The translations under genes were made by a program, and so were the position numbers. Source: a virus. Taken from it: DNA of 64,000 bases. This document shows, piece by piece, positions 268 through 33,063 of this stretch (position 1 is its first letter; each line of letters starts with the position of its first letter). The notes under the pieces were generated by a model, which saw only the letters and a list, made by a program, of their open reading frames with translations, was not told where the DNA came from and did no database searches. The stretch spans positions 1 to 64,000 of IMG/VR virus record IMGVR_UViG_3300035703_000046. One strand, given 5' to 3'.

Positions 268-1497
268 TCACATTCCTAACATGTCAATATCTTTTTCAAC
301 GTCATCTGAAGGTTCTGTTTTTGAAGATTTATCAGATTTATCAGATGGTTTTTTCGATACTACTGGTTGATCTTTAAATTTGCTAAGATCTGGTTTTTCT
401 AGATATTTTCTATAGAATTCGATATCTTTAACAGCCTGATCTAATTCGTCTTTATAAGATTTTACTTTTTCCATCATAGCTGTCATGAGTTTGATAGCAT
501 CTTCTGTGTCGCTGAGAAGTATTCCTCTACCAACAGTAGAGACCCATTCCCACCATCTTGAAGAAGACTGTTTGCTTTTAAGAATTTTATCTAATCTAGA
601 TGCAACTTGAGGGGAAACTGATAGGAAATTATCTAATAATACTTTTGTTTCTTCTACTTTGCCAATTATTTCTTTGTCTAATTTAGAATTAAAGATTAAT
701 TTTGCTAAATTATGACGGGCAACAGCTTGTTGTTTTTTATTTGTAATACTTTCTACTTCGATGCTTCTTGCTGTAATTTTGGCTATTTCTTCGTCCAAGA
801 AAGAAATATTTCGAAACATAGCTTCAACATTTTTAATATAAGGGGCTAAAATTGGTCCTGTTTCGGGATAATCATTAATTACTTGAGATAATTTTTCTAT
901 CAAAGCAGATAAATCTAATTTAAGATTTTCAGAAGCTGGGAAATATTGAGAAGCAATAGCGGAACCAATTAAAGCAGCGGCTGAAAGACCTAATACAGAT
1001 AGCAATTTTGCTTTCATTCCACCCGGAACGCCTGCTTCTTTGACTAAGGATTCTGTGCAAGAATCTGCTAATTTCATTAATGTTTCTTGGTTTTTGCTAT
1101 CCAAGAAATGGGCAAGTTTAATAGTTTCATTGACGAGATCTTGATGGGCTTTAATATAGCGAGTATTGCTTTGAAGAATTTGTGGATTTTTAAGAGCGAT
1201 ATGAGCCATCATATCTTGGCGTTGTTGTAGATTTTCGACTACGCCATTGAATTTGTCATAAGAAGGACCCATGACAACTGTTTTAGGATGGGCTTGCTCT
1301 AATAATTCTTTAGTAGGAGTTGTTTTAACTCCATAGAAAATTTCAGCTGTAGATAGATCTTTTTTATCTTCTTTGGATGGTTTTTTGTCTTTGGAAGAAG
1401 ATTCTTCTTCATCTTCTTCGGCAGCATTAGAAACTAATCCTTTTTCAAGGGCGATTCTAGTATATTCTTCAAAAACATCACTGTGTCTTGGTTGCAT
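268..1497 (-). CDS. Putative processed head-internal/ejection protein with a transmembrane helix
   Basis: About 155-aa pro-region with shared motifs ending LVKEA|G, followed by hydrophobic LLSVLGLSAAALIGSAIASQYF and coiled coil. Confidence 0.55.
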   Translation of the reverse strand: MQPRHSDVFEEYTRIALEKGLVSNAAEEDEEESSSKDKKPSKEDKKDLSTAEIFYGVKTTPTKELLEQAHPKTVVMGPSYDKFNGVVENLQQRQDMMAHIALKNPQILQSNTRYIKAHQDLVNETIKLAHFLDSKNQETLMKLADSCTESLVKEAGVPGGMKAKLLSVLGLSAAALIGSAIASQYFPASENLKLDLSALIEKLSQVINDYPETGPILAPYIKNVEAMFRNISFLDEEIAKITARSIEVESITNKKQQAVARHNLAKLIFNSKLDKEIIGKVEETKVLLDNFLSVSPQVASRLDKILKSKQSSSRWWEWVSTVGRGILLSDTEDAIKLMTAMMEKVKSYKDELDQAVKDIEFYRKYLEKPDLSKFKDQPVVSKKPSDKSDKSSKTEPSDDVEKDIDMLGM

Positions 1498-2584
1498 TTA
1501 ATTTCCTTAAAAATTCACTGGTGATAAATTTATCTACAACTTTTTTTTCTAATTCACTAATATTTTTAGAAACCGTATATTCTTCTGGAAGTTCTACTTT
1601 GCGAGTGCCGATTCTTCCTGGATCTGAAAGTATAAAATTTGTTACATTTCTAAAATTAGCATCAGAATAGATTCTACTTTCTATATCTGGATATTGGTTT
1701 AATTCTGGATAGTAATGCAAAGCCCAGGCTTTTAGGGTAGCGGGAACTGAACCATTGATTAGGTTGGTGGTCCAAACTAATCCACTGATTGGTTCTTCTT
1801 TTTTAGACCCAAAAAAAGATTTTTTTTCTTTTGTTTTTGGTTCTGGTTCTTTTTCTGATTCTGAAGTTTCTTGAGTTTGGGGAGAATCTTCATCTTTTAG
1901 AGACTCTTTCTTTTTGGGACCAAAGATCATGGCAGCACCGGCTAAAAGTCCAAGGCTTAAAAAGATATTCTTAAACATCCAGAAGACTAATCCTTTTCCA
2001 ACATGCCAGAATTTACTTCTTCCATAGGGTGTTGAAAACAAATCTCTTCCAAAAATTTTTTCTATGAAACCAGTTTTTCCGGAAGAGCCTCCAAATCCAA
2101 AAGCAGAATTTTTAACTAAGTATGCTCTTTTGAGTAGAAAATCAAAAGACTCTTCTGCGGTAACGAATCCATCATCTGCGCTTGCGCCTGGGGCTGAGCC
2201 TGCGGCGGCATCAACTGCGGATTTAATTTCTTGAGATGAAATTGGTTCTTGGGCGTCAATTTTAGGTTTTAGGGCTTTTGCTACTTTGACAGCGACGCCA
2301 GAGAGATCGAAACCTATTTGGCTTAGAGCTAAATAGAATAGTCCTAAAAATGGATTGATTCTAAAGGCTACAGAAGGGGCTAAGAGATTAAGGATGCTGG
2401 TAAAGTAGCCGCCTGGAACTTCGGAAGAATCTTGGAATTGATCTCTAAGCCATTGGGCGGCGGAATTACCTCCAAGCGAATCGAAATAACCAGCTTGTTT
2501 AGTTAAGGAATTAGGTACGAGAATTTTCTCTAATTCCTCAACTAAAAAGTTTTCTCTTAAGAGTTTGATTTCTTCGTGGTTCAT
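1478..2584 (-). CDS. Putative processed virion protein with membrane-spanning segments
   Basis: Start revised to MNHEE (ATGA overlap with upstream stop); LTKQA|GYFD site; hydrophobic segments ILNLLAPSVAFRINPFLGLFYLAL and GLVFWMFKNIFLSLGLLAGAAMIFG. Confidence 0.5.
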   Translation of the reverse strand: MNHEEIKLLRENFLVEELEKILVPNSLTKQAGYFDSLGGNSAAQWLRDQFQDSSEVPGGYFTSILNLLAPSVAFRINPFLGLFYLALSQIGFDLSGVAVKVAKALKPKIDAQEPISSQEIKSAVDAAAGSAPGASADDGFVTAEESFDFLLKRAYLVKNSAFGFGGSSGKTGFIEKIFGRDLFSTPYGRSKFWHVGKGLVFWMFKNIFLSLGLLAGAAMIFGPKKKESLKDEDSPQTQETSESEKEPEPKTKEKKSFFGSKKEEPISGLVWTTNLINGSVPATLKAWALHYYPELNQYPDIESRIYSDANFRNVTNFILSDPGRIGTRKVELPEEYTVSKNISELEKKVVDKFITSEFLRKLNATKTQ

Positions 2585-5500
2585 ATGAATTGAATTCGGC
2601 TTAATTGTCTTCGTATTGCTCTTACCCATTCATTGTGTTGGTAATCTAAAGTTGCAATAAATCTATCGGATTCTTTTTCTGGTAAGCCTCTTTGCTGTAT
2701 ATAAGCTATCGCAGACTTCCTTGCACTTGTCAATTGAGTAAGTAAGCTTGTTAAAAATTGTTTATATGAATTAAGAGAACCGTATTGAGAAATTTCCTCA
2801 AATTGATTTCTATATGCAGGAAGATCTGTAACATTATATTGAGCACCTGTTCGAGGGTCTTTATAAAGATAAGTTTGAGTTGCTTGATCTGTTACAACAG
2901 TTCCTGGAATTAAACGATACTTTACAAAATATTGTAAAACTTGAAATGGTTCCAAGGTATCATTTGGGAAGTACATTGTAGCTGCGTTTTGCGGATTTCC
3001 AGAAACGGTTGCCATTGATAAAATGGATTCTCCTGGCGGAACAGATGCAAACCAGAGATTTCCACCAGGATCTTTTGAATCTAGATAGATATTTCTGGCA
3101 TCAAATGGAACTATTCTTTTTGATCCGGGTGTATAAGTGATTTGGCTTGTTCCGGCGCCAGCTTGACCTTCAACTCCAGCAGCGCCTACTAATCCAGCGC
3201 TTCCCAATCGACCTTCTGGACCCCTTGCACCAGTACCAGCACCAGCACCTAATCCGCCTGCTTGATCGCCCAAATCTCCACCTTCAGCTAAAATATCTTC
3301 TAGAAGCAAGGTGTTCCATTTAGAATTTGGCTCGTTGCTAGGTTCAATTCCAAGACTTTTCATCTTTGCTAAAAAGAGCCGAGATAAATTTCTAACAAAT
3401 TGATTATAAGTTTTAGCCAGATTTTGTTCTTTAATTCTATTGCTTTTACTTATCTTTTCAAAAGATCTTTGATTGAACCAATTAATTAATTGACCCCAAT
3501 GAGCGGCAGTGGCATAACTATTCCACCCAAAAGTAGGAATCTTATCACGTACAAAATTAAAAAAGTTTCTTAAATTGAGCAAATCATTTTTTGTTACAGG
3601 AACATCTCCATCTTGATCTGTGCTTTCTGCAGGATTTAAAGTTTCGCTAATTCTATCAAATATTAAATTCAATCCACCCGGAGCACCGGCTAAACTAAAC
3701 CCTTTGCTTTGTAAAAAGGCAGTTATTAACTCATAATTTTTTTCTGCAGCAGCTTTTATTTTTTCCTGATCATTATTGAAAGCCTTAGCTGGTCCAAGGT
3801 TTTCACTAGGAATAGTTTTTACATATTTTCTTGCTGTTTCTAATGACCTTTTGGTATTTACTCCCCAAACTCCTTCTGGATCCGAAATGGCTCCCCCGGT
3901 TTTACCTATGACCATTACTATAGGTGCATCTGCTTTAGCATTAAGTTCCGGAGCTGTCATTAGATAATCACCTAATTTGCCTAAAGCCCATTGCATATGA
4001 TAAACGGCTTTCTTGGTTTCGGTTAGTTCGACTGGCTGAGTGAGTTCAGCTCCGCCGCCGCCAGCTGGTCTTGCTGGAACCGCTCCACCAGAAGGCTTTC
4101 CTTTGGTAGGAATTATAGATGGTTTTGCCTGGGCTTTCTTAACTAGTTCTAAATCAAATAAAAATGAAGCCTCTTTAATAAATTGAGGAGGGATTTGATC
4201 GTTTAATGCCTTAGTATATTCTGTAATTTTACCAACTAATTCAGAGAAATTTTTAACTTTAAAATATGATTTAATACTATTTTTAAGTTGAAAAAAAGTT
4301 TTACTTTTTACAATAATACTATTAAACTTTTGTAAATTTCCCATTTCTGTATCGATTACCGCAATTGTATCTGCGTCATCTTCTTCATTTAGAGATTTTT
4401 TCCAGCTATTTAAACTTCTATATGTTATTTTAATTGGAGAAGTTAGTTCTGAATATTGATCTTTTGTTAATAATTTTTTATTTTTATCAGTAATTTCTTT
4501 TTCTAGTTCTGAGATTGGAGTTTCAGAATTTCTTTGAATGTTTTTAACTCCAGTTTCAATATTTAATAATATTGAAGTATCTGAAAAAATATTTTTAATT
4601 GTATTATTTTCAAATATTTTTAAATCAAATTTTGTGCTTTCATCTTTAATTTCTGAAAATTTAATTAAACTATCAGAAAAATTATCAAGATTAACAGCAT
4701 TAGAAATTTCTTCTGATCTTGTTTTAATAACAGTTGCAGTATCTGAAATTTTAGAAAAATAAGATTTTAAATATTCAGTTGCTTTAGTTTTATTTTCTGA
4801 TGAAAAGAAAAGTTTTTCTTTTTCTCCAGTCCATTTTACAATTTTATCTGCAAGATCATTTGCAAAAGATGCATTGTCCCTACCTACTGGGGGGACAACT
4901 TGCGACTTAAGTTCAACTGGCAATAATTTTTTAACCGCAGATACTAAATCATCAGTACTTGATTCGTATCTTGCAGCCATTTCTATTAACCTAGTGACCA
5001 AAGTTCCTTTATCACTTCCTAATGTAGTGGTTATATATGCATATTCATTAAATTCATCCGTATTAATTTCCGCCGCTTTTAAATAGAAAGATCGAACAGA
5101 GCCACCTGGTTTGACTCTAGAATCATCAAATAAATTGCTAGAATCAATTGATTTAATATTGGCAATAATGCTATTAGCATTGCCTAAAAATATTTGTTTA
5201 TATTTACTTATAATATTTTTATTAATTTTTTCTATTTTAGTTTTTTCTTCTTCGGTAAGAAACTCTGCTCCTTCAGTTTTTTCTGATAGCTCAGTTTCTA
5301 ATAAACCATCTTCTGCAAATTTTAACAATCCCAATGCTTCAGCAGCAGCCACCACCAAATTATTCATTACAGGGGCTGGAGAGCCAGTGCCAGGCTGATG
5401 CGTTAATGTCTCTAAAATCTTCTGTTGACGATCCATGTTGGTGTGAACTACACCCCAGCCACCTTGAGCATCTACTATCTTTGTGCTCTCTGCGTGAGCG

Positions 5501-5796
5501 GCTTGTTGCAATGCACGGCTCTGCTCATCAATTAAATTAGAAAATGCTAATTGAGCTTTTTTGAAAATATTAAGCTTAACTTCTAAAGACTCAGCTTGTT
5601 CATATAAACCAAGCTCACGCAAGCCTGAAGCTAAATTAACCAAATCCTGCATAAAATTACCAGTAGCAGCATATTTATCAATGCTGGTACTAGCTGATTT
5701 GCTTAGTTTGTCCTCAACAATCCATTCTTTTTGAACGGCTGTAGTATAAAATTCTCTGAGAACAGGGCTGGTGATTAAATTAGCTTCTTTTTTCAT
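2581..5796 (-). CDS. Large (1071 aa) putative head-internal/ejection protein with a PG-binding-like segment
   Basis: About 161-aa pro-region with shared motifs; several KxA sites; AVYHMQWAL...EGVWGVNTKRSL resembles a PG-binding domain; Gly-rich linkers. Confidence 0.5.
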   Translation of the reverse strand: MKKEANLITSPVLREFYTTAVQKEWIVEDKLSKSASTSIDKYAATGNFMQDLVNLASGLRELGLYEQAESLEVKLNIFKKAQLAFSNLIDEQSRALQQAAHAESTKIVDAQGGWGVVHTNMDRQQKILETLTHQPGTGSPAPVMNNLVVAAAEALGLLKFAEDGLLETELSEKTEGAEFLTEEEKTKIEKINKNIISKYKQIFLGNANSIIANIKSIDSSNLFDDSRVKPGGSVRSFYLKAAEINTDEFNEYAYITTTLGSDKGTLVTRLIEMAARYESSTDDLVSAVKKLLPVELKSQVVPPVGRDNASFANDLADKIVKWTGEKEKLFFSSENKTKATEYLKSYFSKISDTATVIKTRSEEISNAVNLDNFSDSLIKFSEIKDESTKFDLKIFENNTIKNIFSDTSILLNIETGVKNIQRNSETPISELEKEITDKNKKLLTKDQYSELTSPIKITYRSLNSWKKSLNEEDDADTIAVIDTEMGNLQKFNSIIVKSKTFFQLKNSIKSYFKVKNFSELVGKITEYTKALNDQIPPQFIKEASFLFDLELVKKAQAKPSIIPTKGKPSGGAVPARPAGGGGAELTQPVELTETKKAVYHMQWALGKLGDYLMTAPELNAKADAPIVMVIGKTGGAISDPEGVWGVNTKRSLETARKYVKTIPSENLGPAKAFNNDQEKIKAAAEKNYELITAFLQSKGFSLAGAPGGLNLIFDRISETLNPAESTDQDGDVPVTKNDLLNLRNFFNFVRDKIPTFGWNSYATAAHWGQLINWFNQRSFEKISKSNRIKEQNLAKTYNQFVRNLSRLFLAKMKSLGIEPSNEPNSKWNTLLLEDILAEGGDLGDQAGGLGAGAGTGARGPEGRLGSAGLVGAAGVEGQAGAGTSQITYTPGSKRIVPFDARNIYLDSKDPGGNLWFASVPPGESILSMATVSGNPQNAATMYFPNDTLEPFQVLQYFVKYRLIPGTVVTDQATQTYLYKDPRTGAQYNVTDLPAYRNQFEEISQYGSLNSYKQFLTSLLTQLTSARKSAIAYIQQRGLPEKESDRFIATLDYQHNEWVRAIRRQLSRIQFI

Positions 5797-6528: not shown

Positions 6529-7224
6529 TCAGAAATATGTCTTAAATTCTAAGAAGCTATAAATGGCTGATGGTGGAGCGGTAACAATTCCTACAGGAGG
6601 ATACGTTTCATCAATTCTAGAAGTTGATAATTTACCATCAATGCCGCAAAATAAAATACTATTCAAAGCATAAGAGGCAGAAGTATCAAATTGATCGGTA
6701 GCAGCAATAATTTTACTGGTCCAAACTGTAATTCTACCTGTACCTTCGGTAGAATTTTCCCCTGGAATTCCTGGAACTTGATAGCTGTATCGAACTACAA
6801 CCCTAACAGAATCAAATACACCACTGTTTGTAGAACTGTAATTTAAAGGAGTTCCAGCAGGAACAGTAATAACACCATTCCTAGCATTAAGGACTACCAA
6901 TTCCGGAGTACATACAAATGAATTAGGGTAAATGTTAGCATTCTCTAATTCATATTTTAAATCAATAGGAGTAACGTAAGTAGAGCCTGATAATGTGGGA
7001 ATAGGACAAGTAATAATACAAACTTCATCTACTTTAGCAGTAGAGAAGCTAGTTTTCTTAACGTCATCAATAATTCCAATTGGGCTTAATCCATCGGAGA
7101 CACCGCAAACAACTTGATTGCCATAAACTTTTAGCTGGGCAATCATTCCGGGTTCAAATTCGGAATTAGGATCGACCAGCCAAGAATATGGAAGGCTGTT
7201 ATTGGTGTGTAGGATTCTTAACAT
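6529..7224 (-). CDS. Putative capsid decoration/cement-like protein with an inserted beta domain
   Basis: Start revised to MLRILHTN (7224); PGMIAQL..DGLSPIGIIDD...ITVW..TDQFD..LFCGIDGKLS..VGIV is a beta-clip-like decoration pattern. Confidence 0.5.
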   Translation of the reverse strand: MLRILHTNNSLPYSWLVDPNSEFEPGMIAQLKVYGNQVVCGVSDGLSPIGIIDDVKKTSFSTAKVDEVCIITCPIPTLSGSTYVTPIDLKYELENANIYPNSFVCTPELVVLNARNGVITVPAGTPLNYSSTNSGVFDSVRVVVRYSYQVPGIPGENSTEGTGRITVWTSKIIAATDQFDTSASYALNSILFCGIDGKLSTSRIDETYPPVGIVTAPPSAIYSFLEFKTYF

Positions 7225-7252
7225 GTTTAAATATATATCAGTGAAAATTAAA

Positions 7253-7900
7253 TCAATCTTTTTTGAAAGAATAATGACGTTTGCAAATAGCTTTTTCTTT
7301 ATGGGCTCCCTTGGGGGCTTTCTTCCAGCCTTTGCATTCTTTGGACATATCTTCGTCATCGGCATCCCATGCATCCATGCAATCATAAGCTAATCCGCAA
7401 TCGGCAGCGGCATCGGCGCAGTATCTACTACAAAAAGCTTTATCTTTAACCGTATTAACTGGTTCGCCGCAATAAGCGCAAGTTTTTGCCATTAAATCAT
7501 CGTGAGCTTCGTGGACAACAATATCTGAAGCATCGTTGCCATCAAACATCCATCCTTTTTCTTTTAAGTTTTTTACAGCTTGTTTTGAGCTTTTAGGGAT
7601 AGATTTATCTTTAATTTTTTTGCCAGAAGAATCGGCGAGCATTACGTCGTTTTTGTCACCCTCATCATCTTCCTCGCCTTCCTCATCTTGATTCTCACCT
7701 AAGGAAGATAACATCTTATCAAGCATTGAGGCTTCATCTTCTAAACCGACTTCATCTAGGAGGGTAGCGGACAATTCAATTAATTTGATTGCTTTTTTTA
7801 AATGTGTATCTTTAGAAATTTCTTCTTGAGAAGCAATTATAGAAAGATTATATTCTACGCTGTCAATAAAATCTGATTCTGCAAATTTTTTAATAAACAT
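7253..7900 (-). CDS. Acidic head-associated protein with a metal-binding Cys cluster
   Basis: MFIKKFA|E; tag LSATLLDEVGLEDEASMLD; CAYC...FCSRYCAD. Confidence 0.55.
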   Translation of the reverse strand: MFIKKFAESDFIDSVEYNLSIIASQEEISKDTHLKKAIKLIELSATLLDEVGLEDEASMLDKMLSSLGENQDEEGEEDDEGDKNDVMLADSSGKKIKDKSIPKSSKQAVKNLKEKGWMFDGNDASDIVVHEAHDDLMAKTCAYCGEPVNTVKDKAFCSRYCADAAADCGLAYDCMDAWDADDEDMSKECKGWKKAPKGAHKEKAICKRHYSFKKD

Positions 7901-7908: not shown

Positions 7909-8100
7909 TTAGAATTTAGAAGATAGCTTTTCCATTAGTTTTGTTAATTTTTTAGAATATTTTGGTTTATCAGCCAAATCAAAACATTTAGCGGCTTCAT
8001 TTAAGCAGCGTAAAGCAACTGTTAGTTTTAAATCAGAAGACTCTAGTTGATGTTCTGAGTTTAATTTTTCCATCATTTCTAAAGCTAGATCATCTTTCAT
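7909..8100 (-). CDS. Small protein consisting largely of the shared helical tag
   Basis: Start revised to MKDDL (ATGA overlap, SD GGAGG); LNEAAKCFDLADKPKYSKKL. Confidence 0.6.
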   Translation of the reverse strand: MKDDLALEMMEKLNSEHQLESSDLKLTVALRCLNEAAKCFDLADKPKYSKKLTKLMEKLSSKF

Positions 8101-9101
8101 ACTTCGTCCTCCCAAGCAAATCCAGTATCTAAAGCATCAAGTGCATGATGCATGTCTTTCAAATCTTCATCTTCTTCGCCATCTTCTTCTTCATCCATTT
8201 CTTCGAACTCATCCATCTCTTCGTCCATTTCAGCATCTTCTTCTTTTAATTCTTCAAGCTCCTCATCTTCAGAGGATTCCTCTAACAAAGACTCAATTTC
8301 ATGCATACAATCAAGAAGTTCCATAACTTCTTCTTCGTCAAAACCTTCTTCATCTTCTAAAATTTCATCAAGTTGCTCTTTGCAGTCTTTAAGTAATACT
8401 AAGAGTTCTTCTCTGGACATATCTTCTTCATCAGAGAAATCTTCGCCGTTATCTTCTTGAGTTTCTTCTACTGCCTCTTCGGATTCTTTCAACTCTTCTT
8501 CGTCATCTTTATCTTCATCGTCTGCTGCAAAATCATCAAGAGAGACCATAAACCCTCTTAAACTTGGATCTTTTTCATATCTATCCTTCCAATAACTAGG
8601 GGATTCGGGCTCGATCATTGAAAGACTTGCTTCTGCACTTTCTTTTGCAGGCGCAGATTTAGAAGGATTTTTTTGAAGTGATCTGAAAAAATCTTCTAAA
8701 TCATCTGCATTAAAAGAGTCCATTTCAGATAATATTTCATCTGTTAATTCTACAGATTCCTCAGCCTCTTTTAATAATTTATTAGATGCAATTAGTAATA
8801 AAGAAGCCGCCTTATCAAATCCTTGAGCATCTAATTCTTCAGAAGCTTCAAGAATCATATTAAACATTTCATTTGCAGATTTTGATTTCATATCATTGCA
8901 GCTAGAGCAATCATTGGAGCATTTCGTTCCAGCTTTTCTGCACTTGCAACCTTGCCCACAATCGCAATCTGCTCCGCATTCAGAACAGCAAGATGCTTTA
9001 ACTTTTTTGGCTTTCTTGGCGGCAAATTTGCCAAATCCAAAAGATGGACTAGACATTAAAGAATCCATTTCAGCAGCAACTAAATTACTAATTTTTTTCA
9101 T
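8097..9101 (-). CDS. Metallothionein-like Cys cluster plus very acidic protein (putative prohead core protein)
   Basis: 10 Cys in 31 aa; tag EASEELDAQGFDKAASLL; E/D-rich C-terminal half. Confidence 0.55.
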   Translation of the reverse strand: MKKISNLVAAEMDSLMSSPSFGFGKFAAKKAKKVKASCCSECGADCDCGQGCKCRKAGTKCSNDCSSCNDMKSKSANEMFNMILEASEELDAQGFDKAASLLLIASNKLLKEAEESVELTDEILSEMDSFNADDLEDFFRSLQKNPSKSAPAKESAEASLSMIEPESPSYWKDRYEKDPSLRGFMVSLDDFAADDEDKDDEEELKESEEAVEETQEDNGEDFSDEEDMSREELLVLLKDCKEQLDEILEDEEGFDEEEVMELLDCMHEIESLLEESSEDEELEELKEEDAEMDEEMDEFEEMDEEEDGEEDEDLKDMHHALDALDTGFAWEDEV

Positions 9102-9448: not shown

Positions 9449-9477
9449 AATTATTTAATATTTCTTACTAACGTTTA

Positions 9478-14884: not shown

Positions 14885-15189
14885 TATAAGTGATTTATAA
14901 TATTATCTAAAACATTTTTAATATATCTGCTATCGTGACCAATTAGAATGGTTTTAATGAACGTAATAGACTGACCCATAGAAGAACTAGCGGGTGTTTT
15001 CTTGGAAGCAATCTCGGTTGGGTTTAACTTCCTAATCTTATCTCTCATTGATTTATAAACTTGAGGTCTTTTTTCCGGAGAAATTCTTGTTAATAAAAAT
15101 TTAACAATATCTGCAATTCCTTTGCCTGCAGATTCTGGAGAGCCCATTTCAATTGTGGCAGCAGCTAATTTAAACATCCTGTGATTCAT
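14881..15189 (-). CDS. Hypothetical protein
   Basis: ORF track; N-terminal MFKLA|A. Confidence 0.65.
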   Translation of the reverse strand: MNHRMFKLAAATIEMGSPESAGKGIADIVKFLLTRISPEKRPQVYKSMRDKIRKLNPTEIASKKTPASSSMGQSITFIKTILIGHDSRYIKNVLDNIINHLY

Positions 15190-22699: not shown

Positions 22700-24568
22700 T
22701 CATCTCCATCTAGGTAAATAACCTAAAGTAATTGGAGGATCTTTACTAGCCCCGGCTTCTTTATAGTTGTCGGGGTTTTTAATTTTAAAATTATTGCTTG
22801 CTAAAGATAAAGCTCCAACATAAGCATATGTTAGACCCATAAGACCGTCATTGGGAATATGACCTTTTACATATTTAGTCATAGGTTCTCCGCTGCGGTC
22901 ATAAGTTACTTTGGTGTCCATGCTAGCGCAATGCTCTACTAGCCAAGCAATTTTTTCATAATCTTTATAAGGAAATTTAATTTCTCCTCTTTTAAATTTT
23001 TCAAATATTTGCTCTAATACATAATCTTTTTCAAAAATAACTGTATTTAAATTATCTTCTTCTTTTAAGCGATATTTGCCAGTTACGTTATGCAAGCCGC
23101 TTGCGGCTAAAAATTTATGACCATATCTTTTTTGTAATATTTTGCAAATTTCATATCCGAATCCAATATCTCCTAATGCCAAATCTGGATTATAACGTCT
23201 AAATAATTGTTCAGCTCTTTCAACTTTATAATCTAAATCATTTTTCATGAACCTTTCAGCCCAAGCAACTCTAAATAATTTCGGACCTTCTTGAACTAAA
23301 ACAATAGCAACGCTATAAGATTTTCCTCCAGAAGACTCTTCATCCCCTGCTCCTGAATCTTCTACTTTTTGACCCCAATCAAACCCAATGATAATTTTTC
23401 TATCAGGACTAGATGACAACCTAGAAGCCAACATCATGGTTTGTTCACCGCAAATCTGATCAATTTCATCAGTGGTAATTGGTTGACTTGTACCAGAATA
23501 AAATTCTCCTAAAATTTCATTTCGATAAGCTCTCTCAGTATTTACAGGATGATTCTCTGGCTTTTCCCCAATAACTTTCCATCTTGGAAAATTTGGAATA
23601 TATAATTGATTTAAATGATAACCCATATATTGGGATTTGGGATCTTTATTATAACAGACCCATTTTCCTCTTTTTGCAGCTGCTCTTTTATCTTGCTCAT
23701 GTCCGCAATGGACACATTTAACTATAAAACCATGGCTTGGATGAGATTCAGGCAAAGAATCTTCTATCCAAATATTTTCCCAGTCATCGCTCCCTGGAGT
23801 GTATAAAGGGAAATCTTGCTGACATTTTTCACAACCTAAATGATAAAATTGTTGATTTGATACTGACCAGCGTTTATGAAAATCAGATCCTTTTTTCTTA
23901 GGAGTACCAAAATAAAATTGAACTCCGTCACCCGTAGCTCCATATTGAGCCTGAGTTAAGCTTTTTGTGGCGTTTTCAATTGCGGCAGTGCGCATATCTT
24001 GAATTTCATCACCTAAGAAAATGTCAGCAGTAATACCACGTAAACGATCTCCGGTTAACCCCGTTGATTCAATAAAAATGTGGTTTCCTCCTTGGAAATA
24101 CTTTAATTGCTGAGAATCAGCATCAGGCATTATCCTGGTTTCAATATAAGGTATTTTTTTAATTTTATCTTTAGGAGAATCTACTAGCTTGGAGGTGTTA
24201 ACTACAGTATCAAATTTAGTAACAGAAAATCTTCTTGCCATTTCCAATTGAGGAAAGCAATGCATAATTCGTATGGGAGGCTTGGTTTTAGTACCGTACT
24301 GACCAGATGCTAATAAAAATAATTCAATAAATAATGCCGCCATAGTGCCACCGACTTGGCGACCTTTAAGAAAGATGACTTTTTTACCTTTTCTAGTTAG
24401 AGCGGTCACTCCAACATATCGATAAATATCAATGTATGGCTCCCAACCATCTCTTAATTTTAAGGGCTTTCCATCAATTGTAAGATATTTTTCACACCAA
24501 TAAACAGGATCCATTTCTAGGATCTTTTCTTTCATTTCTAGAAAAAGATCTTTTTCTTTCTTGCTCAT
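22700..24568 (-). CDS. terL: Terminase large subunit (lambda GpA-like)
   Basis: KGRQVGGT, LRG, DEIQD, GTP; CEKC...CVHC zinc site; C-terminal nuclease IGFDWG...ND. Confidence 0.9.
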   Translation of the reverse strand: MSKKEKDLFLEMKEKILEMDPVYWCEKYLTIDGKPLKLRDGWEPYIDIYRYVGVTALTRKGKKVIFLKGRQVGGTMAALFIELFLLASGQYGTKTKPPIRIMHCFPQLEMARRFSVTKFDTVVNTSKLVDSPKDKIKKIPYIETRIMPDADSQQLKYFQGGNHIFIESTGLTGDRLRGITADIFLGDEIQDMRTAAIENATKSLTQAQYGATGDGVQFYFGTPKKKGSDFHKRWSVSNQQFYHLGCEKCQQDFPLYTPGSDDWENIWIEDSLPESHPSHGFIVKCVHCGHEQDKRAAAKRGKWVCYNKDPKSQYMGYHLNQLYIPNFPRWKVIGEKPENHPVNTERAYRNEILGEFYSGTSQPITTDEIDQICGEQTMMLASRLSSSPDRKIIIGFDWGQKVEDSGAGDEESSGGKSYSVAIVLVQEGPKLFRVAWAERFMKNDLDYKVERAEQLFRRYNPDLALGDIGFGYEICKILQKRYGHKFLAASGLHNVTGKYRLKEEDNLNTVIFEKDYVLEQIFEKFKRGEIKFPYKDYEKIAWLVEHCASMDTKVTYDRSGEPMTKYVKGHIPNDGLMGLTYAYVGALSLASNNFKIKNPDNYKEAGASKDPPITLGYLPRWR

Positions 24569-24600: not shown

Positions 24601-25296
24601 TCATTTCTTCTGGAGACTGTGAAGAAAATCTCTATTGCTTCCATCGTCTTCAATTTCTATAATAGCTTTACCTAAATTGCCATCAACATTAGTTGTTCTA
24701 GGGTGATTCTTGTTATAAGATTCTAAGCATTTACCAATGAATTTGCTTAATTTAGAATCGTAAACATGATAAGCTTCTAATCCATCATTTTTTAATGATT
24801 TTAATAAATCATCTTGAATTGCAGGAATAGAAATATGACCATAATAAGAATTTACTTTATTATTAACAAATGATTTAATTTTTTCTTTTAATACATCAGA
24901 AACATCAAGACCCAATTCATCGCTTTCATCTACAGAAATCATTACAACAGAATTATTAATTACTGTTCCATTACCAGGAGACATATCTTGTGCTGTTTTA
25001 ATATTATCTTTAGAGGCGTCTTCTTTTTCAGCCAATGTTTTTAAATATTGCTTTAAGCCAGTTAATTCTTGATATTCTTTAACAATAGAATCTACTGTTG
25101 CATGTTTTTTCTTACCACTGACAATGGAAGAAATTTGAGAATAATAATCAGTTTCGCTTTGACGCAATCTAGCTGCCTCTACAGCGGTTGCACTTGATGT
25201 TTTTTCCCATTGAACCGCAAACTCATCAAGCCAAGAAGGAGAGGAAGAGCCTGAAGAAGTAAAATTATCTCTATCAAACATGCGATTACGTGACAT
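24601..25296 (-). CDS. Hypothetical head-associated protein
   Basis: Start revised to MSRNR (SD AAGG); IKTA|Q site. Confidence 0.65.
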   Translation of the reverse strand: MSRNRMFDRDNFTSSGSSSPSWLDEFAVQWEKTSSATAVEAARLRQSETDYYSQISSIVSGKKKHATVDSIVKEYQELTGLKQYLKTLAEKEDASKDNIKTAQDMSPGNGTVINNSVVMISVDESDELGLDVSDVLKEKIKSFVNNKVNSYYGHISIPAIQDDLLKSLKNDGLEAYHVYDSKLSKFIGKCLESYNKNHPRTTNVDGNLGKAIIEIEDDGSNRDFLHSLQKK

Positions 25297-25304: not shown

Positions 25305-26240
25305 TTATGCAGGGTACTGAGCAGCCCAATCGCCGTTTTCAGCACTAGTTAAATCAATTTCTTCACCAATCATCTTGGAGCGATCTCTCCAGACAGAAGC
25401 ATATCCCATGTCTTCAATCAAATGAACAACTTCAAGTTTTTGCTGTTTAGTTAGATCGTATTTCTTACAAAGATCCATAAAAACTTCTTCAATATCGTGA
25501 CCCGCAGAAACAGAAGAATTAATACAAATTCTAGCCAATAAGCTTATAAAATAAGGAACATTAACTTCAAAATGAATAGATTTAGCTTCTTTTACAAATC
25601 CAACTGAATCATCAGAGGCTTTTTTCTTTTTACGTTTCATTGGATTTTTAATAGATTCTAATTTTTCTAGGCGGTCAAATAATCTATCAAGACCATCATA
25701 AATTTCTTGACGAGCTTTTTCTAATAAAGAAGTATCAACGAGATCATGAATATCTGTGCGACTTGCTTTGGAGCATTCTCCTTCCAAATATTTTAAATAA
25801 GCAATTGCTTTTTCAATTCCAGAAATATCTTTACCATTATGACGAGGAACTGTTTTTAATTTATTTTCTAGCCAAGGTAAAAATTTATCATGTGTCCATT
25901 TCCATGGATCATCTGTTACTTGAACTTTATCGTCTTCTTCTGATACAGAGAGTTCGGAAGGTTCTTCAATTTCTTCTTCAGAGTCAGAACCTGGAAATTT
26001 ACCTAAAGTAAATGAAAATTCTTTTTTTGCATCAAATTTAAAATCTTCATCATCACTAGAAATATGAATATGACCTTCTATCTCAGGATGATGCTCTAAA
26101 AGCTCCTCTTCATGTTCATTTTCTGGATCAATTTCAATTTCTACATCAAGAAAATGAGTATCTGCTAACATCCCGTCAGCTTCTTCTCTAGAAACCAATT
26201 CACTTCCTGTAGGACTTATTTGAGCAATTTTAATAGTCAT
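25305..26240 (-). CDS. Hypothetical acidic head-associated protein
   Basis: MTIKIA|Q, KKKA|S, FVKEA|K. Confidence 0.65.
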   Translation of the reverse strand: MTIKIAQISPTGSELVSREEADGMLADTHFLDVEIEIDPENEHEEELLEHHPEIEGHIHISSDDEDFKFDAKKEFSFTLGKFPGSDSEEEIEEPSELSVSEEDDKVQVTDDPWKWTHDKFLPWLENKLKTVPRHNGKDISGIEKAIAYLKYLEGECSKASRTDIHDLVDTSLLEKARQEIYDGLDRLFDRLEKLESIKNPMKRKKKKASDDSVGFVKEAKSIHFEVNVPYFISLLARICINSSVSAGHDIEEVFMDLCKKYDLTKQQKLEVVHLIEDMGYASVWRDRSKMIGEEIDLTSAENGDWAAQYPA

Positions 26241-26811: not shown

Positions 26812-26812
26812 A

Positions 26813-27031
26813 TCATCCTAATTTTAAAACTTCATTTGCAAATTTTTCAATCTCTAAAACTATCTCTGCTATTGTTTTCTTTTTGGCACGCAATGACTTT
26901 CTTTTATTTAAAAAATCTCTAACACTTTTAAATCTATTCATGCTGCCATGGTAAAAGCCTTCTCCATAATCGTAATTTTTTCTTACAGGACTTGGATAAG
27001 GTCTAACATCTAGATCTACTCTCTTTTTCAT
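26813..27031 (-). CDS. Small hypothetical protein
   Basis: ORF track; overlaps or abuts both neighbours. Confidence 0.6.
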   Translation of the reverse strand: MKKRVDLDVRPYPSPVRKNYDYGEGFYHGSMNRFKSVRDFLNKRKSLRAKKKTIAEIVLEIEKFANEVLKLG

Positions 27032-27753
27032 AATGAAGCCTTAAAGTCAATATAATTTAAAGGCAGAACGTTTTCAAGTTCTAATTTTTTAATTAATTTA
27101 ATAGTATTTTTATAATTAAATTGCAATGCTTTATTAAGCTTTTTGACCATATATTCTTGCGATACTAGATTTAAAATCTGCTTGTTTTTTATTATCCAAG
27201 ATTCAACTCTGGGAGATAAATCAAAGCCTAGTTTAGAAGAAAGATAAATCGCTCTAACAATTCTATTAGGATCTACATGCAAAGTAATATTAGGAGGAAG
27301 ACACGTATCTATTACTTGCTTTTCAATATCTTTCAGTCCTCTTTTTAAAGGGTCATAAATTGTAGTTAAATCCATTGACATTAATAATGAATTGCAGGTA
27401 AAATCTCTGCTTATCATTTCTTTATGTAGAGGAGATAAAGAAATTCCTACAATATTCTCTATGTTGGGAACTATAAAATTGCTACTAAAATCTAGTTTTA
27501 ATCCTGGAAGCATAATGGAAGAATGACCATCATCCATTACAATGTGCTTGGCTGGAATATTTTTTAATTTTTCATGTACTTTCTTTGACAATACATGAAC
27601 AGTTACATCTCCAGTTGTAATATCAACATCATTTAAATGAATATTTTTATTAATTGCCTTGTCTCTGGGCAAGCCTCCGCACAAGTACGGTTGGGATAAG
27701 CCGTTCTCTATAGCTGTCTCATTAATTATCTTTAAAAGATAAATTAGCTTCAT
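27028..27753 (-). CDS. tRNA nucleotidyltransferase/poly(A) polymerase family protein (class II, compact)
   Basis: YLCGGLPRD, DVD, RDFTCNSL, DPL..GLKDI, DPNRIVRA. Confidence 0.88.
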   Translation of the reverse strand: MKLIYLLKIINETAIENGLSQPYLCGGLPRDKAINKNIHLNDVDITTGDVTVHVLSKKVHEKLKNIPAKHIVMDDGHSSIMLPGLKLDFSSNFIVPNIENIVGISLSPLHKEMISRDFTCNSLLMSMDLTTIYDPLKRGLKDIEKQVIDTCLPPNITLHVDPNRIVRAIYLSSKLGFDLSPRVESWIIKNKQILNLVSQEYMVKKLNKALQFNYKNTIKLIKKLELENVLPLNYIDFKASL

Positions 27754-27757: not shown

Positions 27758-29410
27758 TCATATTGCTGTTGTTGGTTTCGTTGAGACCGGAGCTGCTGGT
27801 GCGGCTGGAGAAGTTGGTAAATTAACTGGCTGAGCAAGATCTTCCTCTACTTCAATTACTGGTTTTTCTACCTTTGTTTGTTCATCTAATTTTCTTTGTT
27901 GTTTTCTTGCTTTTTCTTTATTTTCCTGATCTTCAAGAGAAGACCTTACGCCTTCTAAATCAACTGCAGAGGGGCTGGTTGAAGTTTCTTTCCCTAACAA
28001 ATCTAATTCTTGCTCTTTTGGATTTTTAATAGATCCCTTTAATTTGGAAAGAACTTCCTCAATACGTGTTAAGGCGTATTGATTGCTTTCTAAGCTTTTA
28101 GATGAGGCTTCTGCTAGACCTGGGAAGAAAGAACTTAGATTTAATTGATCCATCATAAGATCAATAATAGCCAATTGTCTTGGAATCTCTCTAGTTCTAA
28201 ATAAATTAACCAATGTATCCAGTCTTTCAATTACATCCGTAATTGTTATTCCGGATAATGCATTTTCTAATAAATCATCTGTTTTTTTATGAACTAAAGT
28301 ATCTGCACTTTCTTGAGGTTCATCAACAATTTCAATTTCAGCTTTTGGAACAGCTATAGGCTTTGCAGGCACTGTCCCTGCTGCTGGTACAGGGCTTAAT
28401 TCTGGAGAAGGAGCTAGTGCTGGCTCTGGCGCAGGAGCAGCCAAAGGGTCTAAGGCTTGAGCCATAACCACCATATTTTCAGAAATAGGATCGGTTCCTT
28501 CCAGCATGTCTACGATATCATTGAAGTCAGGATCGAATTCCTCAACTTGTATCGCAAAATTATCATCTGAATTTTCATCATCAATAGCGTTTTGATCACC
28601 AAAACCACTTCCAAGTAATGATTTTGAAACTTCTGCCAAAGGATCTTTTGCAGGTTCTGCGGGAGGACCACCAGGACCAGGGGGAAGGGGAGTAATCCCC
28701 GGTGGAGGAGGCACCGCATCCATTCCAGGTTCAAGCGGAGGAGGTGGAGGAACTGGATCTTGAGCAATTTTAATTAATTCTCTTGCTGTTTTAGGAAATC
28801 CTTTATGAGCTAATATATTAGCTTCTTTTATAATTAAGTCCTCTAAAATTGTTGAACTAGCATGTTTAATTGGAGCAACTTGAACTAATCGTTTTACTCT
28901 TTGCAATTCTTCTAGCCATTTATGAATTCCAACATCTAATCTTTTAGACAACTCTCTTTGGACATCTGGATCTGTTGCTAATTTTTCAGCAGACATTAAT
29001 CTGCTAATAATAGATTTAATTTTTTTATTAATTTTAAATTGAGGATCGTCTTCTTCTGGTAATTTAATATTGGGCTTTAATTCATTTAAAGCAGGTGGCT
29101 TGTTAGGTGCGATTACGCCAGGTGCAACTGCTAAATAATTTGAATCAACCATGCCAGGTAAAAACTGAGCTGTTTTATATGAATTTTGATTATTGCCTTG
29201 GTAATATTTTACCCAATGATTGAAATCATTCTTTTCCATGCTATCCCAATTTTGTGTTAATTGTTCGCGGGTTTTTGAAATATCATAGCCTTGATTTGCA
29301 TATAAATACATGGTTTCTAAAGTTTTAACCCATTTATTTATGTCATAAGACTCAATATAATCAACAGAGTAACCTTGAGGATATGCTGTTTTATTGATTT
29401 TATTACTCAT
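27758..29410 (-). CDS. Pro-rich putative prohead core protein with multiple KxA sites
   Basis: INKTA|Y, YKTA|Q, IKHA|S, IKEA|N, LIKIA|Q; tag EANILAHKGFPKTAREL. Confidence 0.55.
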   Translation of the reverse strand: MSNKINKTAYPQGYSVDYIESYDINKWVKTLETMYLYANQGYDISKTREQLTQNWDSMEKNDFNHWVKYYQGNNQNSYKTAQFLPGMVDSNYLAVAPGVIAPNKPPALNELKPNIKLPEEDDPQFKINKKIKSIISRLMSAEKLATDPDVQRELSKRLDVGIHKWLEELQRVKRLVQVAPIKHASSTILEDLIIKEANILAHKGFPKTARELIKIAQDPVPPPPPLEPGMDAVPPPPGITPLPPGPGGPPAEPAKDPLAEVSKSLLGSGFGDQNAIDDENSDDNFAIQVEEFDPDFNDIVDMLEGTDPISENMVVMAQALDPLAAPAPEPALAPSPELSPVPAAGTVPAKPIAVPKAEIEIVDEPQESADTLVHKKTDDLLENALSGITITDVIERLDTLVNLFRTREIPRQLAIIDLMMDQLNLSSFFPGLAEASSKSLESNQYALTRIEEVLSKLKGSIKNPKEQELDLLGKETSTSPSAVDLEGVRSSLEDQENKEKARKQQRKLDEQTKVEKPVIEVEEDLAQPVNLPTSPAAPAAPVSTKPTTAI

Positions 29411-30116: not shown

Positions 30117-30131
30117 GTAACCTCAAATTAA

Positions 30132-30160: not shown

Positions 30161-30181
30161 ATAATATATCTATTCAAGTGA

Positions 30182-30952
30182 TTATTTTTTAGAATTAAAG
30201 CTCATTGGAACATTAACATAGGCATTATATGCTGTTTGAGATTGCAAAGAAATATCTCCACCAGGAACTTTATTTCCTTTTAAAGTAGTGAATCCATGTT
30301 TATAATCATAAGTTTTTTTATCTAAAGAGCATTGATAAACATCATCAGAAACTCTGATTAGTTGGTGCCCAGGATGATCAATGCAAGATCTTGTTTTTAA
30401 AGGAGCCTCTAAAGGCTTATATTCTTTTATATTTTTGTCTACTACTTTTGCAATTTCGTCAGCTTTAAAAGAAACTTTAACTTGCTCTGAATTTTCGGAT
30501 TTGTTATTTAAATTTTTTTTTATTTCAGAAATTTTTGCTTCGTAAGCTCTTTTTTCTTCTTCTCTTGCTTCTGGAACTGCGAAAGTTAAAAGAACTTGAT
30601 CAAGGACAGAAGCCTGTCTGCGAAGAAGGTTATCGCTTGATTTGGAAAACTCTTCTGCTAAAGCGGCAACGGCTTCCAAATCTTTAGGAGTAACTTCTTC
30701 TTTTTCTTCTACTTCGCCCAATTCTTCTTTTTTAGATTTGCAGAATTCTTCAAATTCTTTTCGCTCTTCTTCTCCGAGCTTGTATGAATTAGATTTGCAA
30801 ATATTATCAATAGCTGTTGCGCAACCAATAAAACACCCGGCTACAGTTTGTAGCATATCGGGACTTACTTGGTCTGCCAAATCGAGAACTTCATGATCTC
30901 GATTTAAAAACATGCAACGTAACTCTTCAAGTTTTTTTAATAGTTCTAACAT
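30182..30952 (-). CDS. Hypothetical protein with a C-terminal C/H metal site
   Basis: Start revised to MLELL (TGATG overlap); CIDHPGH...YQC; tag-like LAEEFSKS..QASVLDQVL. Confidence 0.65.
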   Translation of the reverse strand: MLELLKKLEELRCMFLNRDHEVLDLADQVSPDMLQTVAGCFIGCATAIDNICKSNSYKLGEEERKEFEEFCKSKKEELGEVEEKEEVTPKDLEAVAALAEEFSKSSDNLLRRQASVLDQVLLTFAVPEAREEEKRAYEAKISEIKKNLNNKSENSEQVKVSFKADEIAKVVDKNIKEYKPLEAPLKTRSCIDHPGHQLIRVSDDVYQCSLDKKTYDYKHGFTTLKGNKVPGGDISLQSQTAYNAYVNVPMSFNSKK

Positions 30953-32571
30953 CAGCAGTTCCAATATACTTTTGAGGTTACAAAGTGAGCTGATTCTGTA
31001 CCGTCTTCCATTCCTTTACGGTGAAGCGGGCGGCACTGACCAAATTTATCTTGGTACACTTTGCCTACTGGAAGACCGGTATGGCTGCAAATTAAACTTG
31101 AACTATTTGCAGTCTTTATCGTATGTGAGCATCCAGAAGATGCCTGCTTATGAAGATTAAATTCACCTTTAAGGGCTTGTTTATAAATGGCAAATGCCAT
31201 GTTGTAGAAGTGAGCGTCTCCAGCTTCACGTAGAATATGAAGAGCATCTTCTGCTTTTTCAAAGTTCTCTTCTTGTAATGCTGAGGCAAGACTTAAAAAT
31301 AACTCTTGTGGTTTTAAATCATAAAGAGGAGAAGCCATTGCCATAGCGGAAAGATCATTTGTTTCATTGATAATTTCAGAAATTCCCTCTGATGAGAATT
31401 CTTTAATTGCATCTTCTGCTACAACAGTTCTTGGCAATAATACGTTTGTTTGAGAGATTTTAACGGGTACTTTAAATCCTCTGCGACCATCAATAGAGGC
31501 GGCATAAACGATTCCATCTTTGTCAGATGAAGCTACTCCTACCTGAGCCTTATATCCAAACGATGCTAGTTTTCTAACAATCATTTCTCTGCCAGTGGCT
31601 ACCACTTTTTTACCATGATATAATTCAGCTTCACCAGCCTTGGAAGATAATCTCTCTCCAAGAGATTTGTACTCTTCTGGGACCTCGAATTGAGGCATAG
31701 CAACATCGGAAACTTCATTTCCTACATTGGGATTGTACAAAAGAACCCCTGGGGCGTCTAAAGAAACGCTATCGCCAGAAGCCGTTTTCATTCTAAATAA
31801 AGCTAACTCTACTTCGGATAATGGCTCGGCGGTTTTAGAAACAAAATTTAATACTTGTTCCGCATTAACCTGCATTAATTTACCTGCGTTTTTAACAAGG
31901 TAATCATCTAATAGAGATGCCGTTAGTTCAACAATTCCTTCTGGAGTAACAAAGGAAGATGGAATTGCAGGCTCACTGTCTACAATCTCTACTGGTAATA
32001 GGACTGAAGTTTCGCCTCGTGGAGTTTCAAAAGAAGCTCTACAAACAAGCCAAGTATCGTTTCCAGCAACCACTTGTGCGAGCTTTGGATTTGCACCAAC
32101 AGAGCGTAAAGCGTATGCGGTATTTCTTTCGGCAGAACTTGCTGCTGTCTTAGAGTAAGTTTTAACTACAGCATTTTTGCCATCGTTGAATAATGAAGAT
32201 AATGTTTCAACTAAATTTGAATCTACATCTTTATGAGCAATAGATAATAAATCTTCACCTTCTCTGAAATCTTTTTTAATTTCTGGAGCTTTTTCCTGAG
32301 CGCCAAGCTCTTCTGCAAAGTAAGAAGCAAACTTGTTATTATTGCTATATAAAGTGTTGTATATTTTCTTTAATTCAAAACGAGAAATCATTGGTTGGGA
32401 GCTAGCTTTTTTATTTAAAAAGTTGCACATCCCAACGATTGTGGCGTCATATGGAAAAACCTCTGCAAGTTTTTCAGCTTTTTTAGCTAAAACACCAGTG
32501 AAGAAGCTTTCTTGTTCTTTGACTGCTTCTGCCGCTTTTAAAATAACGTTATTTAATTGATTAAAATCCAT
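30952..32571 (-). CDS. Putative head protein with an internally duplicated alpha/beta domain and many KxA sites
   Basis: Two related repeats; KKA|S, KTA|A, KNA|G, KTA|S, KQA|S; C-terminal C..C.H..C. Confidence 0.55.
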   Translation of the reverse strand: MDFNQLNNVILKAAEAVKEQESFFTGVLAKKAEKLAEVFPYDATIVGMCNFLNKKASSQPMISRFELKKIYNTLYSNNNKFASYFAEELGAQEKAPEIKKDFREGEDLLSIAHKDVDSNLVETLSSLFNDGKNAVVKTYSKTAASSAERNTAYALRSVGANPKLAQVVAGNDTWLVCRASFETPRGETSVLLPVEIVDSEPAIPSSFVTPEGIVELTASLLDDYLVKNAGKLMQVNAEQVLNFVSKTAEPLSEVELALFRMKTASGDSVSLDAPGVLLYNPNVGNEVSDVAMPQFEVPEEYKSLGERLSSKAGEAELYHGKKVVATGREMIVRKLASFGYKAQVGVASSDKDGIVYAASIDGRRGFKVPVKISQTNVLLPRTVVAEDAIKEFSSEGISEIINETNDLSAMAMASPLYDLKPQELFLSLASALQEENFEKAEDALHILREAGDAHFYNMAFAIYKQALKGEFNLHKQASSGCSHTIKTANSSSLICSHTGLPVGKVYQDKFGQCRPLHRKGMEDGTESAHFVTSKVYWNC

Positions 32572-32586
32572 TTATGTTCCTAAATT

Positions 32587-33063
32587 TCATGCAAGTTCAG
32601 GATACTTTTTGTATAATTCTTGACGTTCAGACTCAGATAATTGATTTAAAAGTCCTCTAACTAATCTCGAATTATTAGCTAGTTTATTTGGAAGATATGA
32701 AGGAACCAAATTTACTTCATCTTCAGGCACTCCTAAATCCTGAGCAGCAAGTCTAATTATAGGCTCATTTTTATAAAAAACATGCAAGTCATTTTGTTTA
32801 GAAAGTAAAACTTTCCAATTGCTTTTGGTAGAAGCAGTCTTTTCTAATTGCTCTTCATCATAAAGGGCAATTATGCATTCGCCTTCAGAGGTCTTATCTA
32901 CTCGCCACAAACCTTCAATATCTGAGCCGTCAATAAAGCGAACAATATCAAATGCTACTTTACGGATTTTGTGTTGCACATCGGCTAATTTATAAACTTT
33001 TTGCTCAGATTTATTAATACTTTTTTCTAAGCTTGAATAATCTATTGAAGATTTGGACATCAT
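32587..33063 (-). CDS. Hypothetical head-associated protein
   Basis: SD AGGAG; IRKVA|F, LEKTA|S. Confidence 0.65.
   Translation of the reverse strand: MMSKSSIDYSSLEKSINKSEQKVYKLADVQHKIRKVAFDIVRFIDGSDIEGLWRVDKTSEGECIIALYDEEQLEKTASTKSNWKVLLSKQNDLHVFYKNEPIIRLAAQDLGVPEDEVNLVPSYLPNKLANNSRLVRGLLNQLSESERQELYKKYPELA

Follow-up and report, generated by a model that had tools for sequence, protein, structure and literature searches.

The question raised by this locus is why one short sequence pattern, hydrophobic-x-Lys-x-Ala, recurs in so many proteins of a viral head-assembly module, and what it does there. The DNA in question is a stretch of 64,000 nucleotides, positions 1 to 64,000 of the IMG/VR virus record IMGVR_UViG_3300035703_000046, here called the window. 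The module occupies positions 268-33063 on its minus strand and comprises 31 open reading frames (ORFs), among which the terminase, the portal and a protease-scaffold polyprotein are assigned. An earlier note, made from the sequence alone, had listed many of these sites and read them as an Ala-specific prohead maturation code, used by the protease encoded at 9478-13092. This reading is supported by our analysis. We put the probability at roughly two in three that the hydrophobic-x-K-x-A sites are cleavage sites of this protease, which is fused to a scaffold and is of the T4 gp21/herpes assemblin type; cleavage of the motif, its position after the Ala and not after the Lys, and the part of the fused protease in it are what we infer from the sequence comparisons given below. 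In the following, h stands for a hydrophobic residue, cut sites are numbered with hydrophobic residues at P5/P4, Lys at P3 and Ala at P1, an arrow marks the predicted cut, and the coordinates of motif sites and of protease features lie on the minus strand.

The excess of the motif is restricted to the head genes. Expected counts were obtained from 500 rounds of shuffling in which the composition of each protein was kept, and the head region (31 ORFs, 10,734 amino acids, aa) was compared with the replication-side region at 33134-64000 (42 ORFs, 10,039 aa). The pattern [LIVFMY]xKxA occurs 63 times in the head region against 23.1 ± 4.7 expected (a 2.7-fold enrichment, z 8.6) and the stricter [LIVFM]xKxA[SQGYDA] 36 times against 7.4 (z 10.6). 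At 33134-64000 the corresponding counts are 23 (17.4 expected, z 1.4) and 9 (4.8 expected, z 1.9), and the remainder of the contig is flat (14 versus 13.8 expected). Every site listed in the earlier note was found in the ORF to which it had been assigned, and its expectation of an enrichment over the replication genes was borne out by these composition-matched shuffles. The signal is spread over the module, as removal of the two richest ORFs leaves 45 sites versus 17.5 expected (z 6.9). Moreover, an unbiased scan of all residue pairs in the head region ranked K-x-A first among those with a gap of one residue. Its flanks favour Leu, Ile or Phe at P5, Val or Ile at P4, Thr at P2 and, at P1', Ser followed by Gln; the K-x-A sites of 33134-64000 show none of these preferences. 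The sites are also biased towards N-termini: in 11 of the 31 head ORFs a site lies within the first 30 residues (1.8 ± 1.3 expected), compared to 3 of 42 ORFs (2.1 expected) at 33134-64000.

It must be considered that such an excess could arise from nothing more than the composition and the helical periodicity of Lys/Ala-rich coiled-coil head proteins, and be without function. The head region is indeed richer in Ala than the other region (7.6% versus 5.2%), many of the carriers are helical, and hxKxL was the sole control motif to be raised in the head region (z 4.0). However, the shuffles kept the composition of each protein, and shuffling within windows of 10, 20 or 40 residues left the z score at 8.4-9.1. 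The other controls (hxKxG/S/T/E, hxRxA, hxExA, hxxKA and the mirror motif AxKxh) were not enriched in the head region (z -1.5 to 1.2). These directional controls and local shuffles largely exclude a helix artefact; furthermore, the sites occupy flexible N-terminal tags or adjoin linkers rich in Gly or Pro, and the motif residues are conserved well above background (see below). We therefore regard this explanation as very improbable. Motifs of the Glu type show no such excess: [SAG]xE was not enriched in any of the regions compared (z -1.3 to 1.1), and the rise of hxE is mild and extends to the flanks.

Two syntenic relatives, G001 (301 kb, 71% complete) and the more distant G002 (327 kb, 76% complete), show this bias as well. 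Their syntenic head modules contain 56 motifs versus 25.6 expected (z 6.2) and 47 versus 20.1 expected (z 6.1), respectively, whereas the flanks of both modules show no motif excess. In homologs with less than 65% identity, the motif Lys and the motif Ala were each kept in 60% of comparisons, but the non-motif Lys and Ala of the same proteins only in 34.5% and 36%, and in the replication-side region the motif residues were not kept above background. The N-terminal tags persist in homologs of only 21-40% identity. Conservation, on which the earlier reading depends, thus holds for most of the sites, with exceptions that are taken up below.

The head module encodes an enzyme that could read such a code. 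The 1204-aa product of 9478-13092 matches the 'head maturation protease' family PHROG 18299 (E 1.7e-12), with residues ~100-240 resembling head-maturation proteases, and its residues 38-250 (12343-12981) form a serine protease domain (MEROPS S77/S21-like) that has the fold of T4 gp21 and herpes assemblin. Residues 1-260, modelled with AlphaFold2 (mean predicted local distance difference test score, pLDDT, 81), were aligned by VIA-align with the varicella-zoster virus protease (1vzv; Z 10.1, root-mean-square deviation 2.5, 114 residues aligned) and with T4 gp21 (5jbl; Z 10.0, root-mean-square deviation 2.6, 126 residues aligned). Herpes proteases occupy ranks 1-32 of the matches, those of pseudorabies virus, herpes simplex virus, human cytomegalovirus, Kaposi's sarcoma-associated herpesvirus and Epstein-Barr virus having Z scores of 7-9.5. 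VIA-align was needed for this assignment, because Foldseek alone gave the gp21 match with an E-value of only 2e-3; a phmmer search of the protease domain against PDB sequences returned only chance zinc-finger matches. Two residues are invariant in 118 sequences, His133 (12694-12696), the presumed catalytic His, and Ser184 (12541-12543), the second Ser of SVSMG and the presumed nucleophile. The protease named in the earlier note is hence confirmed by its fold and by these residues, including the Ser of the SVSMG stretch. After the strand of the catalytic Ser, a zinc-knuckle-like cluster is inserted (Cys194-x2-Cys197-x10-Cys208-x-His/Cys210; 12463-12513), which is invariant in the clade and also present in gp19 of Bacillus phage G, and of which we found no earlier description. 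When a complex between the protease domain and the KKA↓YFQG stretch of its own scaffold was predicted, the outcome was 'no answer' (score 0.01), which speaks neither for nor against binding.

In G001 and G002 the gene region for the protease domain is interrupted by an intein of ~365 residues (C...HN/C, with a LAGLIDADG endonuclease), inserted behind KNNN, near residue 108 of this domain (~10,130-11,230 of L022, G001:100001-120000, and ~295,100-296,190 of G002:C1). The copy in the window is intein-free and reads NNNS/DIFP at the equivalent empty site (~12766-12771). Such insertions seem to be common, because in 26 of 150 listed homologs the match falls into two parts, the latter half of the domain being shifted by ~130-390 residues.

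The motif is also enriched in the scaffold itself, i.e. the ~950 residues which follow the N-terminal protease in the same polypeptide. A search of 1.8 billion cluster representatives with the protease domain gave 200 proteins at E<=1e-30; most of the homologs listed share the fused architecture, typically with a length of ~1050-1420 aa, or ~1500 aa when an intein is present. In 117 full-length homologs the motif occurs on average 9.8 times versus 3.3 expected, and 116 of them lie above expectation. The polyprotein of the window has 22 K-x-A sites, nine with a hydrophobic P5, the last at residues 1132-1134 and none in the final 70 residues. FEKIA↓K at residues 33-37 (12982-12996), directly before the protease domain, is a candidate N-terminal self-processing site; its Lys and Ala are both kept in 80% of the 117 homologs, and phage G gp19 has LVKTA↓A at the aligned position. 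A candidate release site, KKA↓YFQGGGG (residues 372-374, 11971-11979), has Lys in 99 and Arg in 13 of the 117 at P3, Ala in 84, Gly in 20 and Ser in 13 at P1, and Tyr in 109 at P1'. Its counterpart KQA↓YFQGGGG (residues 461-463, 11704-11712; P1 Ala in 93, Gly in 15 and Ser in 8) marks the start of the second of two tandem repeats of ~90 residues (11446-11979), each of which begins with K-x-A↓YFQGGGG-NEPQTYPKEDA-K-RNTQDKQMVG. Further downstream, the scaffold contains the conserved sites FLKAA↓S (residues 528-532, 11497-11511), MYKSA↓Q (residues 598-602, 11287-11301; Lys in 96, Ala in 94 and Gln in 85 of 117), which reads [LM]-Y-K-S-A↓Q in homologs and directly precedes a Pro/Ala-rich linker, and FSKYA↓S together with LVKQA↓K (residues 773-787, 10732-10776). 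The two K-x-A↓Y-F-Q-G sites, F-x-K-x-A at 33-37, [LM]-Y-K-S-A↓Q and L-x-K-x-A at 785 are the best conserved of all scaffold sites, and among them P1 varies in the order Ala > Gly > Ser and P3 in the order Lys > Arg. This pattern of substitution fits a small S1 pocket better than helix packing. The scaffold may also be made separately: an in-frame Met368 (11989-11991) is nearly invariant in the homologs and is preceded by AAGGATGA (11995-12002), the same Shine-Dalgarno-like context as at the gene's own start at 13092, which makes a putative nested scaffold-only product possible, comparable to herpes UL26.5 or lambda Nu3.

Taken together, we propose that the polyprotein would enter the prohead through its scaffold part, where the protease would recognise hydrophobic (P5/P4)-Lys (P3)-x-Ala (P1) and cut after the small P1 residue, with Ser, Gln, Ala, Gly or Tyr preferred at P1'. 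It would free itself at the K-x-A↓YFQG sites, perhaps also at residue 37, and cut the scaffold some ten times. The portal and a dozen proteins which are probably internal or ejected would lose N-terminal tags of 6-30 residues, and the capsid protein would be trimmed in those relatives where its gene is present. The tags may double as addresses that bring proteins into the prohead.

This last point leads to the possibility that the motif serves as a linear address or binding tag for the scaffold or the inner capsid surface and stays uncut. Conservation, head specificity and N-terminal bias would fit a targeting signal equally well, and the capsid-targeting sequences of T4 internal proteins carry gp21 sites, i.e. 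targeting and cleavage coincide there, which makes both roles hard to separate. However, a pure address does not explain more than ten sites inside the scaffold itself and at linker boundaries, the preference Ala > Gly > Ser at one position looks like the constraint of a protease pocket, and the same module encodes a protease of the family that trims such tags. An address without cleavage is hence judged unlikely.

Several observations weigh against our interpretation of the motif as the cleavage site of the fused protease, and they should be set out together. Perhaps a third of the sites listed in the earlier note are non-conserved and may be chance matches; VTKSA of the portal, IIKSA of the ORF at 17890 and LGKEA of the scaffold are lost in more distant homologs and may be examples. 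The rise of hxKxL means that some of the signal may reflect amphipathic-helix periodicity. On the side of the enzyme, the Pfam family PF03420 (Peptidase_S77) gave no match at E<=1 in the window contig (G000), G001 or G002. For the third catalytic residue, which is a His in the herpes proteases, there are several invariant candidates (Glu219, Asn221 and Glu228), and His210 is more likely a metal ligand, because it alternates with Cys within the C-x2-C...C-x-H/C cluster. Cleavage data for the window phage or phage G were not found in the literature searched. Finally, sequence cannot separate a cut after Ala from a cut after Lys, the tolerance of Arg at P3 would also suit a Lys/Arg-specific cut, and a ClpP homolog is encoded in the same genome outside the window.

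The last two points define a further explanation, in which the motif is cut but after the Lys (h-x-K↓x-A), or by another enzyme such as the phage ClpP homolog or a host protease. The known proteases of the gp21/assemblin fold take Ala (herpes) or Glu (T4) at P1 and not Lys. The ClpP homolog (E 1e-55) lies on the same contig (G000:68115-68636), outside the head module, and in phage G the ClpP gene adjoins ClpX (gp257-258), which suggests a degradative ClpXP. Moreover, the bias for the motif extends, together with the gp19-type protease, to phage G. ClpP-like prohead proteases have been described for other phages (Liu and Mushegian 2004, as cited in PMC5694885), which counts in favour of another enzyme; we nevertheless consider both variants improbable. 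A Prp-type protease, by analogy to phage 80alpha, was also considered as the cutter, and none is encoded in the records of G000, G001 and G002.

If the sites are cut by the fused protease, the other head proteins of the window should be viewed as its predicted substrates. The portal (19511-21232) carries FSKKA↓S at residues 68-72 (21017-21031), upstream of the conserved portal core that begins at ~residue 114; the site is kept in the ~90%-identical portals shown, and one of four more distant portals has ISKIA↓Q at the same place. The N-terminal tag M-ITKLA↓A (13992-14006) of a 239-aa protein (13290-14009) is kept in 11 of 12 homologs, down to 21-33% identity, while the most distant homolog has IEKTA↓F, i.e. 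the tag is shifted rather than lost. In a structural model of this protein, the tag is situated outside the folded helical bundle (pLDDT <50 for residues 1-13) and a second site at a helix end; the modelled position of the tag fits accessibility. Similar N-terminal sites are MFKLA↓A (15163-15177) of a 102-aa protein (14881-15189), the site being kept to 41% identity, and M-TIKIA↓Q of a 311-aa protein (26223-26237). INKTA↓YPQ at residues 5-9 of a 550-aa protein (29384-29398) is kept in relatives, and it is retained though the length of the upstream segment differs greatly between them. Also conserved are IVKVA↓G at residues 20-24 of a 653-aa protein (17826-17840; kept at 37-40% identity), LIKNA↓G at residues 157-161 of a 520-aa protein (18970-18984; K-x-A-G in all three homologs, at ~38-41% identity) and NIKTA↓Q of a 242-aa protein (24991-25005; kept in four of five homologs). 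Other proteins carry many sites: a 539-aa protein (30952-32571) is the densest carrier outside the scaffold, with 15 K-x-A sites of which nine have a hydrophobic P5, and a 1071-aa protein (2581-5796) has eight motif matches, most of them within its first 240 residues.

Beyond the range covered by the earlier note, a 282-aa protein (34732-35580) may be tagged as well, because its FRKLA↓A (residues 25-29) is identical in the homologs from G001 (62% identity) and G002 (28% identity).

The major capsid gene was sought in the window and in the whole contig and is absent from both, the contig being only a fragment. It is a single virus contig of 91,314 bp with a CheckV completeness of 21%, and the 64-kb window makes up its first part. 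In G001 and G002 the capsid gene is found further downstream of the order terminase, portal and protease-scaffold seen in the window. The G002 capsid protein is 54% identical to gp27 of Bacillus phage G, which places the window phage in a phage G-related uncultured clade. The motif is present in the capsid proteins of this clade as well: 115 of 120 keep [LI]xK[YF]A[ASQ] (residues 22-27). The N-terminal extension in which it lies is missing from phage G gp27 and is, apart from the motif, conserved less than any other part of the protein. Capsid relatives of the clade number 1787 at E<=1e-10 and occur on contigs of up to 480 kb. Given contigs of 412-480 kb that bear such relatives, the best explanation of the source is an uncultured megaphage of roughly 400-480 kb, kin to phage G. 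The G002 capsid gene is uninterrupted (337 aa), whereas that of G001 is broken up into four or more pieces (9476-9706, 9977-10042, 11064-11531 and 12584-12853 of L023, G001:120001-140000). These interruptions look like introns with homing endonucleases, because two LAGLIDADG-type ORFs lie inside.

The window has a G+C content of ~32% and nearly all of its genes are on the minus strand; a megablast search with 15.6 kb against isolated phages gave no match, and the large terminase (22700-24568) shares <=25% identity with isolates. A PIN-PhoH gene (21383-22696) lies between terminase and portal on the strand opposite to both. Searches of Pfam and PHROGs left most of the motif-bearing ORFs at 268-33063 without any family match. 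Within the head module, the ORF at 27028-27753 encodes a motif-free poly(A) polymerase/CCA-adding head domain (PF01743, E 3.7e-11). The ORF at 8097-9101 encodes a 334-aa protein that is rich in Cys in its N-terminal part and extremely acidic (Asp/Glu-rich) in its C-terminal half; its best G001 match is a 1289-aa ORF with 45% identity across 110 residues only. The ORFs at 6529-7386 and 7253-7900 overlap by 134 bases, probably as a start-codon artefact; a start at ~7221 is more likely for the former, because its G001 homolog has 231 aa. Elsewhere on the same contig, outside the window, rIIA/rIIB-like genes are located at 87235-90350.

If true, the Lys-x-Ala code would mark which genes of phage-G-like megaphages encode head or ejected proteins, predict the mature ends of these proteins, and link the specificities of phage and herpesvirus proteases. 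The clade is abundant, judged from its capsid relatives. Furthermore, the code is testable now, as phage G is cultivated and liquid chromatography-tandem mass spectrometry data of its particles are public; they have been searched with fully tryptic rules only (PMC12484599).

Phage G (Donellivirus gee) is also one of the closest known systems for comparison. Its gp19 is the nearest isolated homolog of the window protease (33% identity, E 2e-20) and has in common with it the His, the Ser of SMG, the zinc knuckle and, at the aligned N-terminal position, h-x-K-x-A, but it is a stand-alone protease of 300 aa, unlike the fused enzyme of the window. In phage G gp4-gp28, hxKxA occurs 25 times versus 10 expected (z 4.7), a weaker bias than in the head module of the window, and K-x-A is the second strongest of all residue pairs. 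N-termini resembling MKRLIKKA↓S are found in gp9, gp13, gp20 and gp38, and the portal gp14 has MAKQA↓A at residues 16-20. Since the head module of phage G has the same bias, the bias accompanies this type of protease outside the clade of the window as well; a cleavage motif for phage G was not found in the literature searched. A more distant fused protease, gp77 with 895 aa, is encoded by Rhodococcus phage E3 (NC_021347.1:26611-50934). In its head proteins K-x-A is flat and R-x-A mildly raised (46 versus 29.7 expected, z 3.0), the portal contains MPRVA↓S, and the capsid protein has LGRFA↓K at its N-terminus. Though suggestive only, this may mean that a code of the form basic-x-Ala extends beyond the phage G clade.

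Among phages, T4 gp21 cuts after L/I-x-E and phiKZ gp175 after S/A/G-x-E. To our knowledge, experimentally known phage maturation codes are few, being those of T4 and of phiKZ with its relatives, and all of them cut after Glu. No phage protease with a K-x-A or Ala-P1 motif was found in our literature searches. In SPN3US, gp245 recognises A-x-E and also prefers Ser at P1' (PMC10052503). The window resembles T4, phiKZ and SPN3US in that one short motif recurs in the scaffold, in portal-side proteins and in many internal head proteins, although cleavage here is predicted. Like the T4 type, it combines the protease fold with predicted short N-terminal propeptides and self-processing sites. It differs by the predicted P1 Ala (Gly, Ser) instead of Glu, by Lys at P3 and hydrophobic residues at P5/P4, and by a protease that is fused to the scaffold, has a zinc-knuckle insert and escapes detection by the Pfam S77 family.

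The other known system is herpesvirus assemblin, made as a precursor (UL26/UL80a) whose release and maturational sites read (V/L/I)-x-A↓S. The differences are clear: P3 is hydrophobic in herpes but Lys here, with the hydrophobic residues at P5/P4; there are many sites here versus two, and dozens of other head proteins carry the motif; the window scaffold has no counterpart of the C-terminal maturational site; and sequence identity amounts to only 10-16%. The likeness comprises the fold, a protease located N-terminal to the scaffold in one polypeptide, a predicted Ala↓Ser cut, a possible internal scaffold start at Met368, and a conserved K-x-A↓YFQG after the protease domain that could act as the release site. 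One may speculate, as a rather doubtful extension, that Lys-x-Ala↓Ser cutting is homologous to, and not convergent with, the Ala↓Ser sites of herpes assemblin, that a small P1 and the protease-scaffold polyprotein were already present in the common ancestor of the capsid proteases of tailed phages and herpesviruses, with the Glu of T4 and phiKZ derived, and that the tag is also a portable address for megaphage heads. In any case, the combination of Lys at P3 with a small P1 residue would be new for a phage, and it resembles the Ala↓Ser sites of the herpesviruses.

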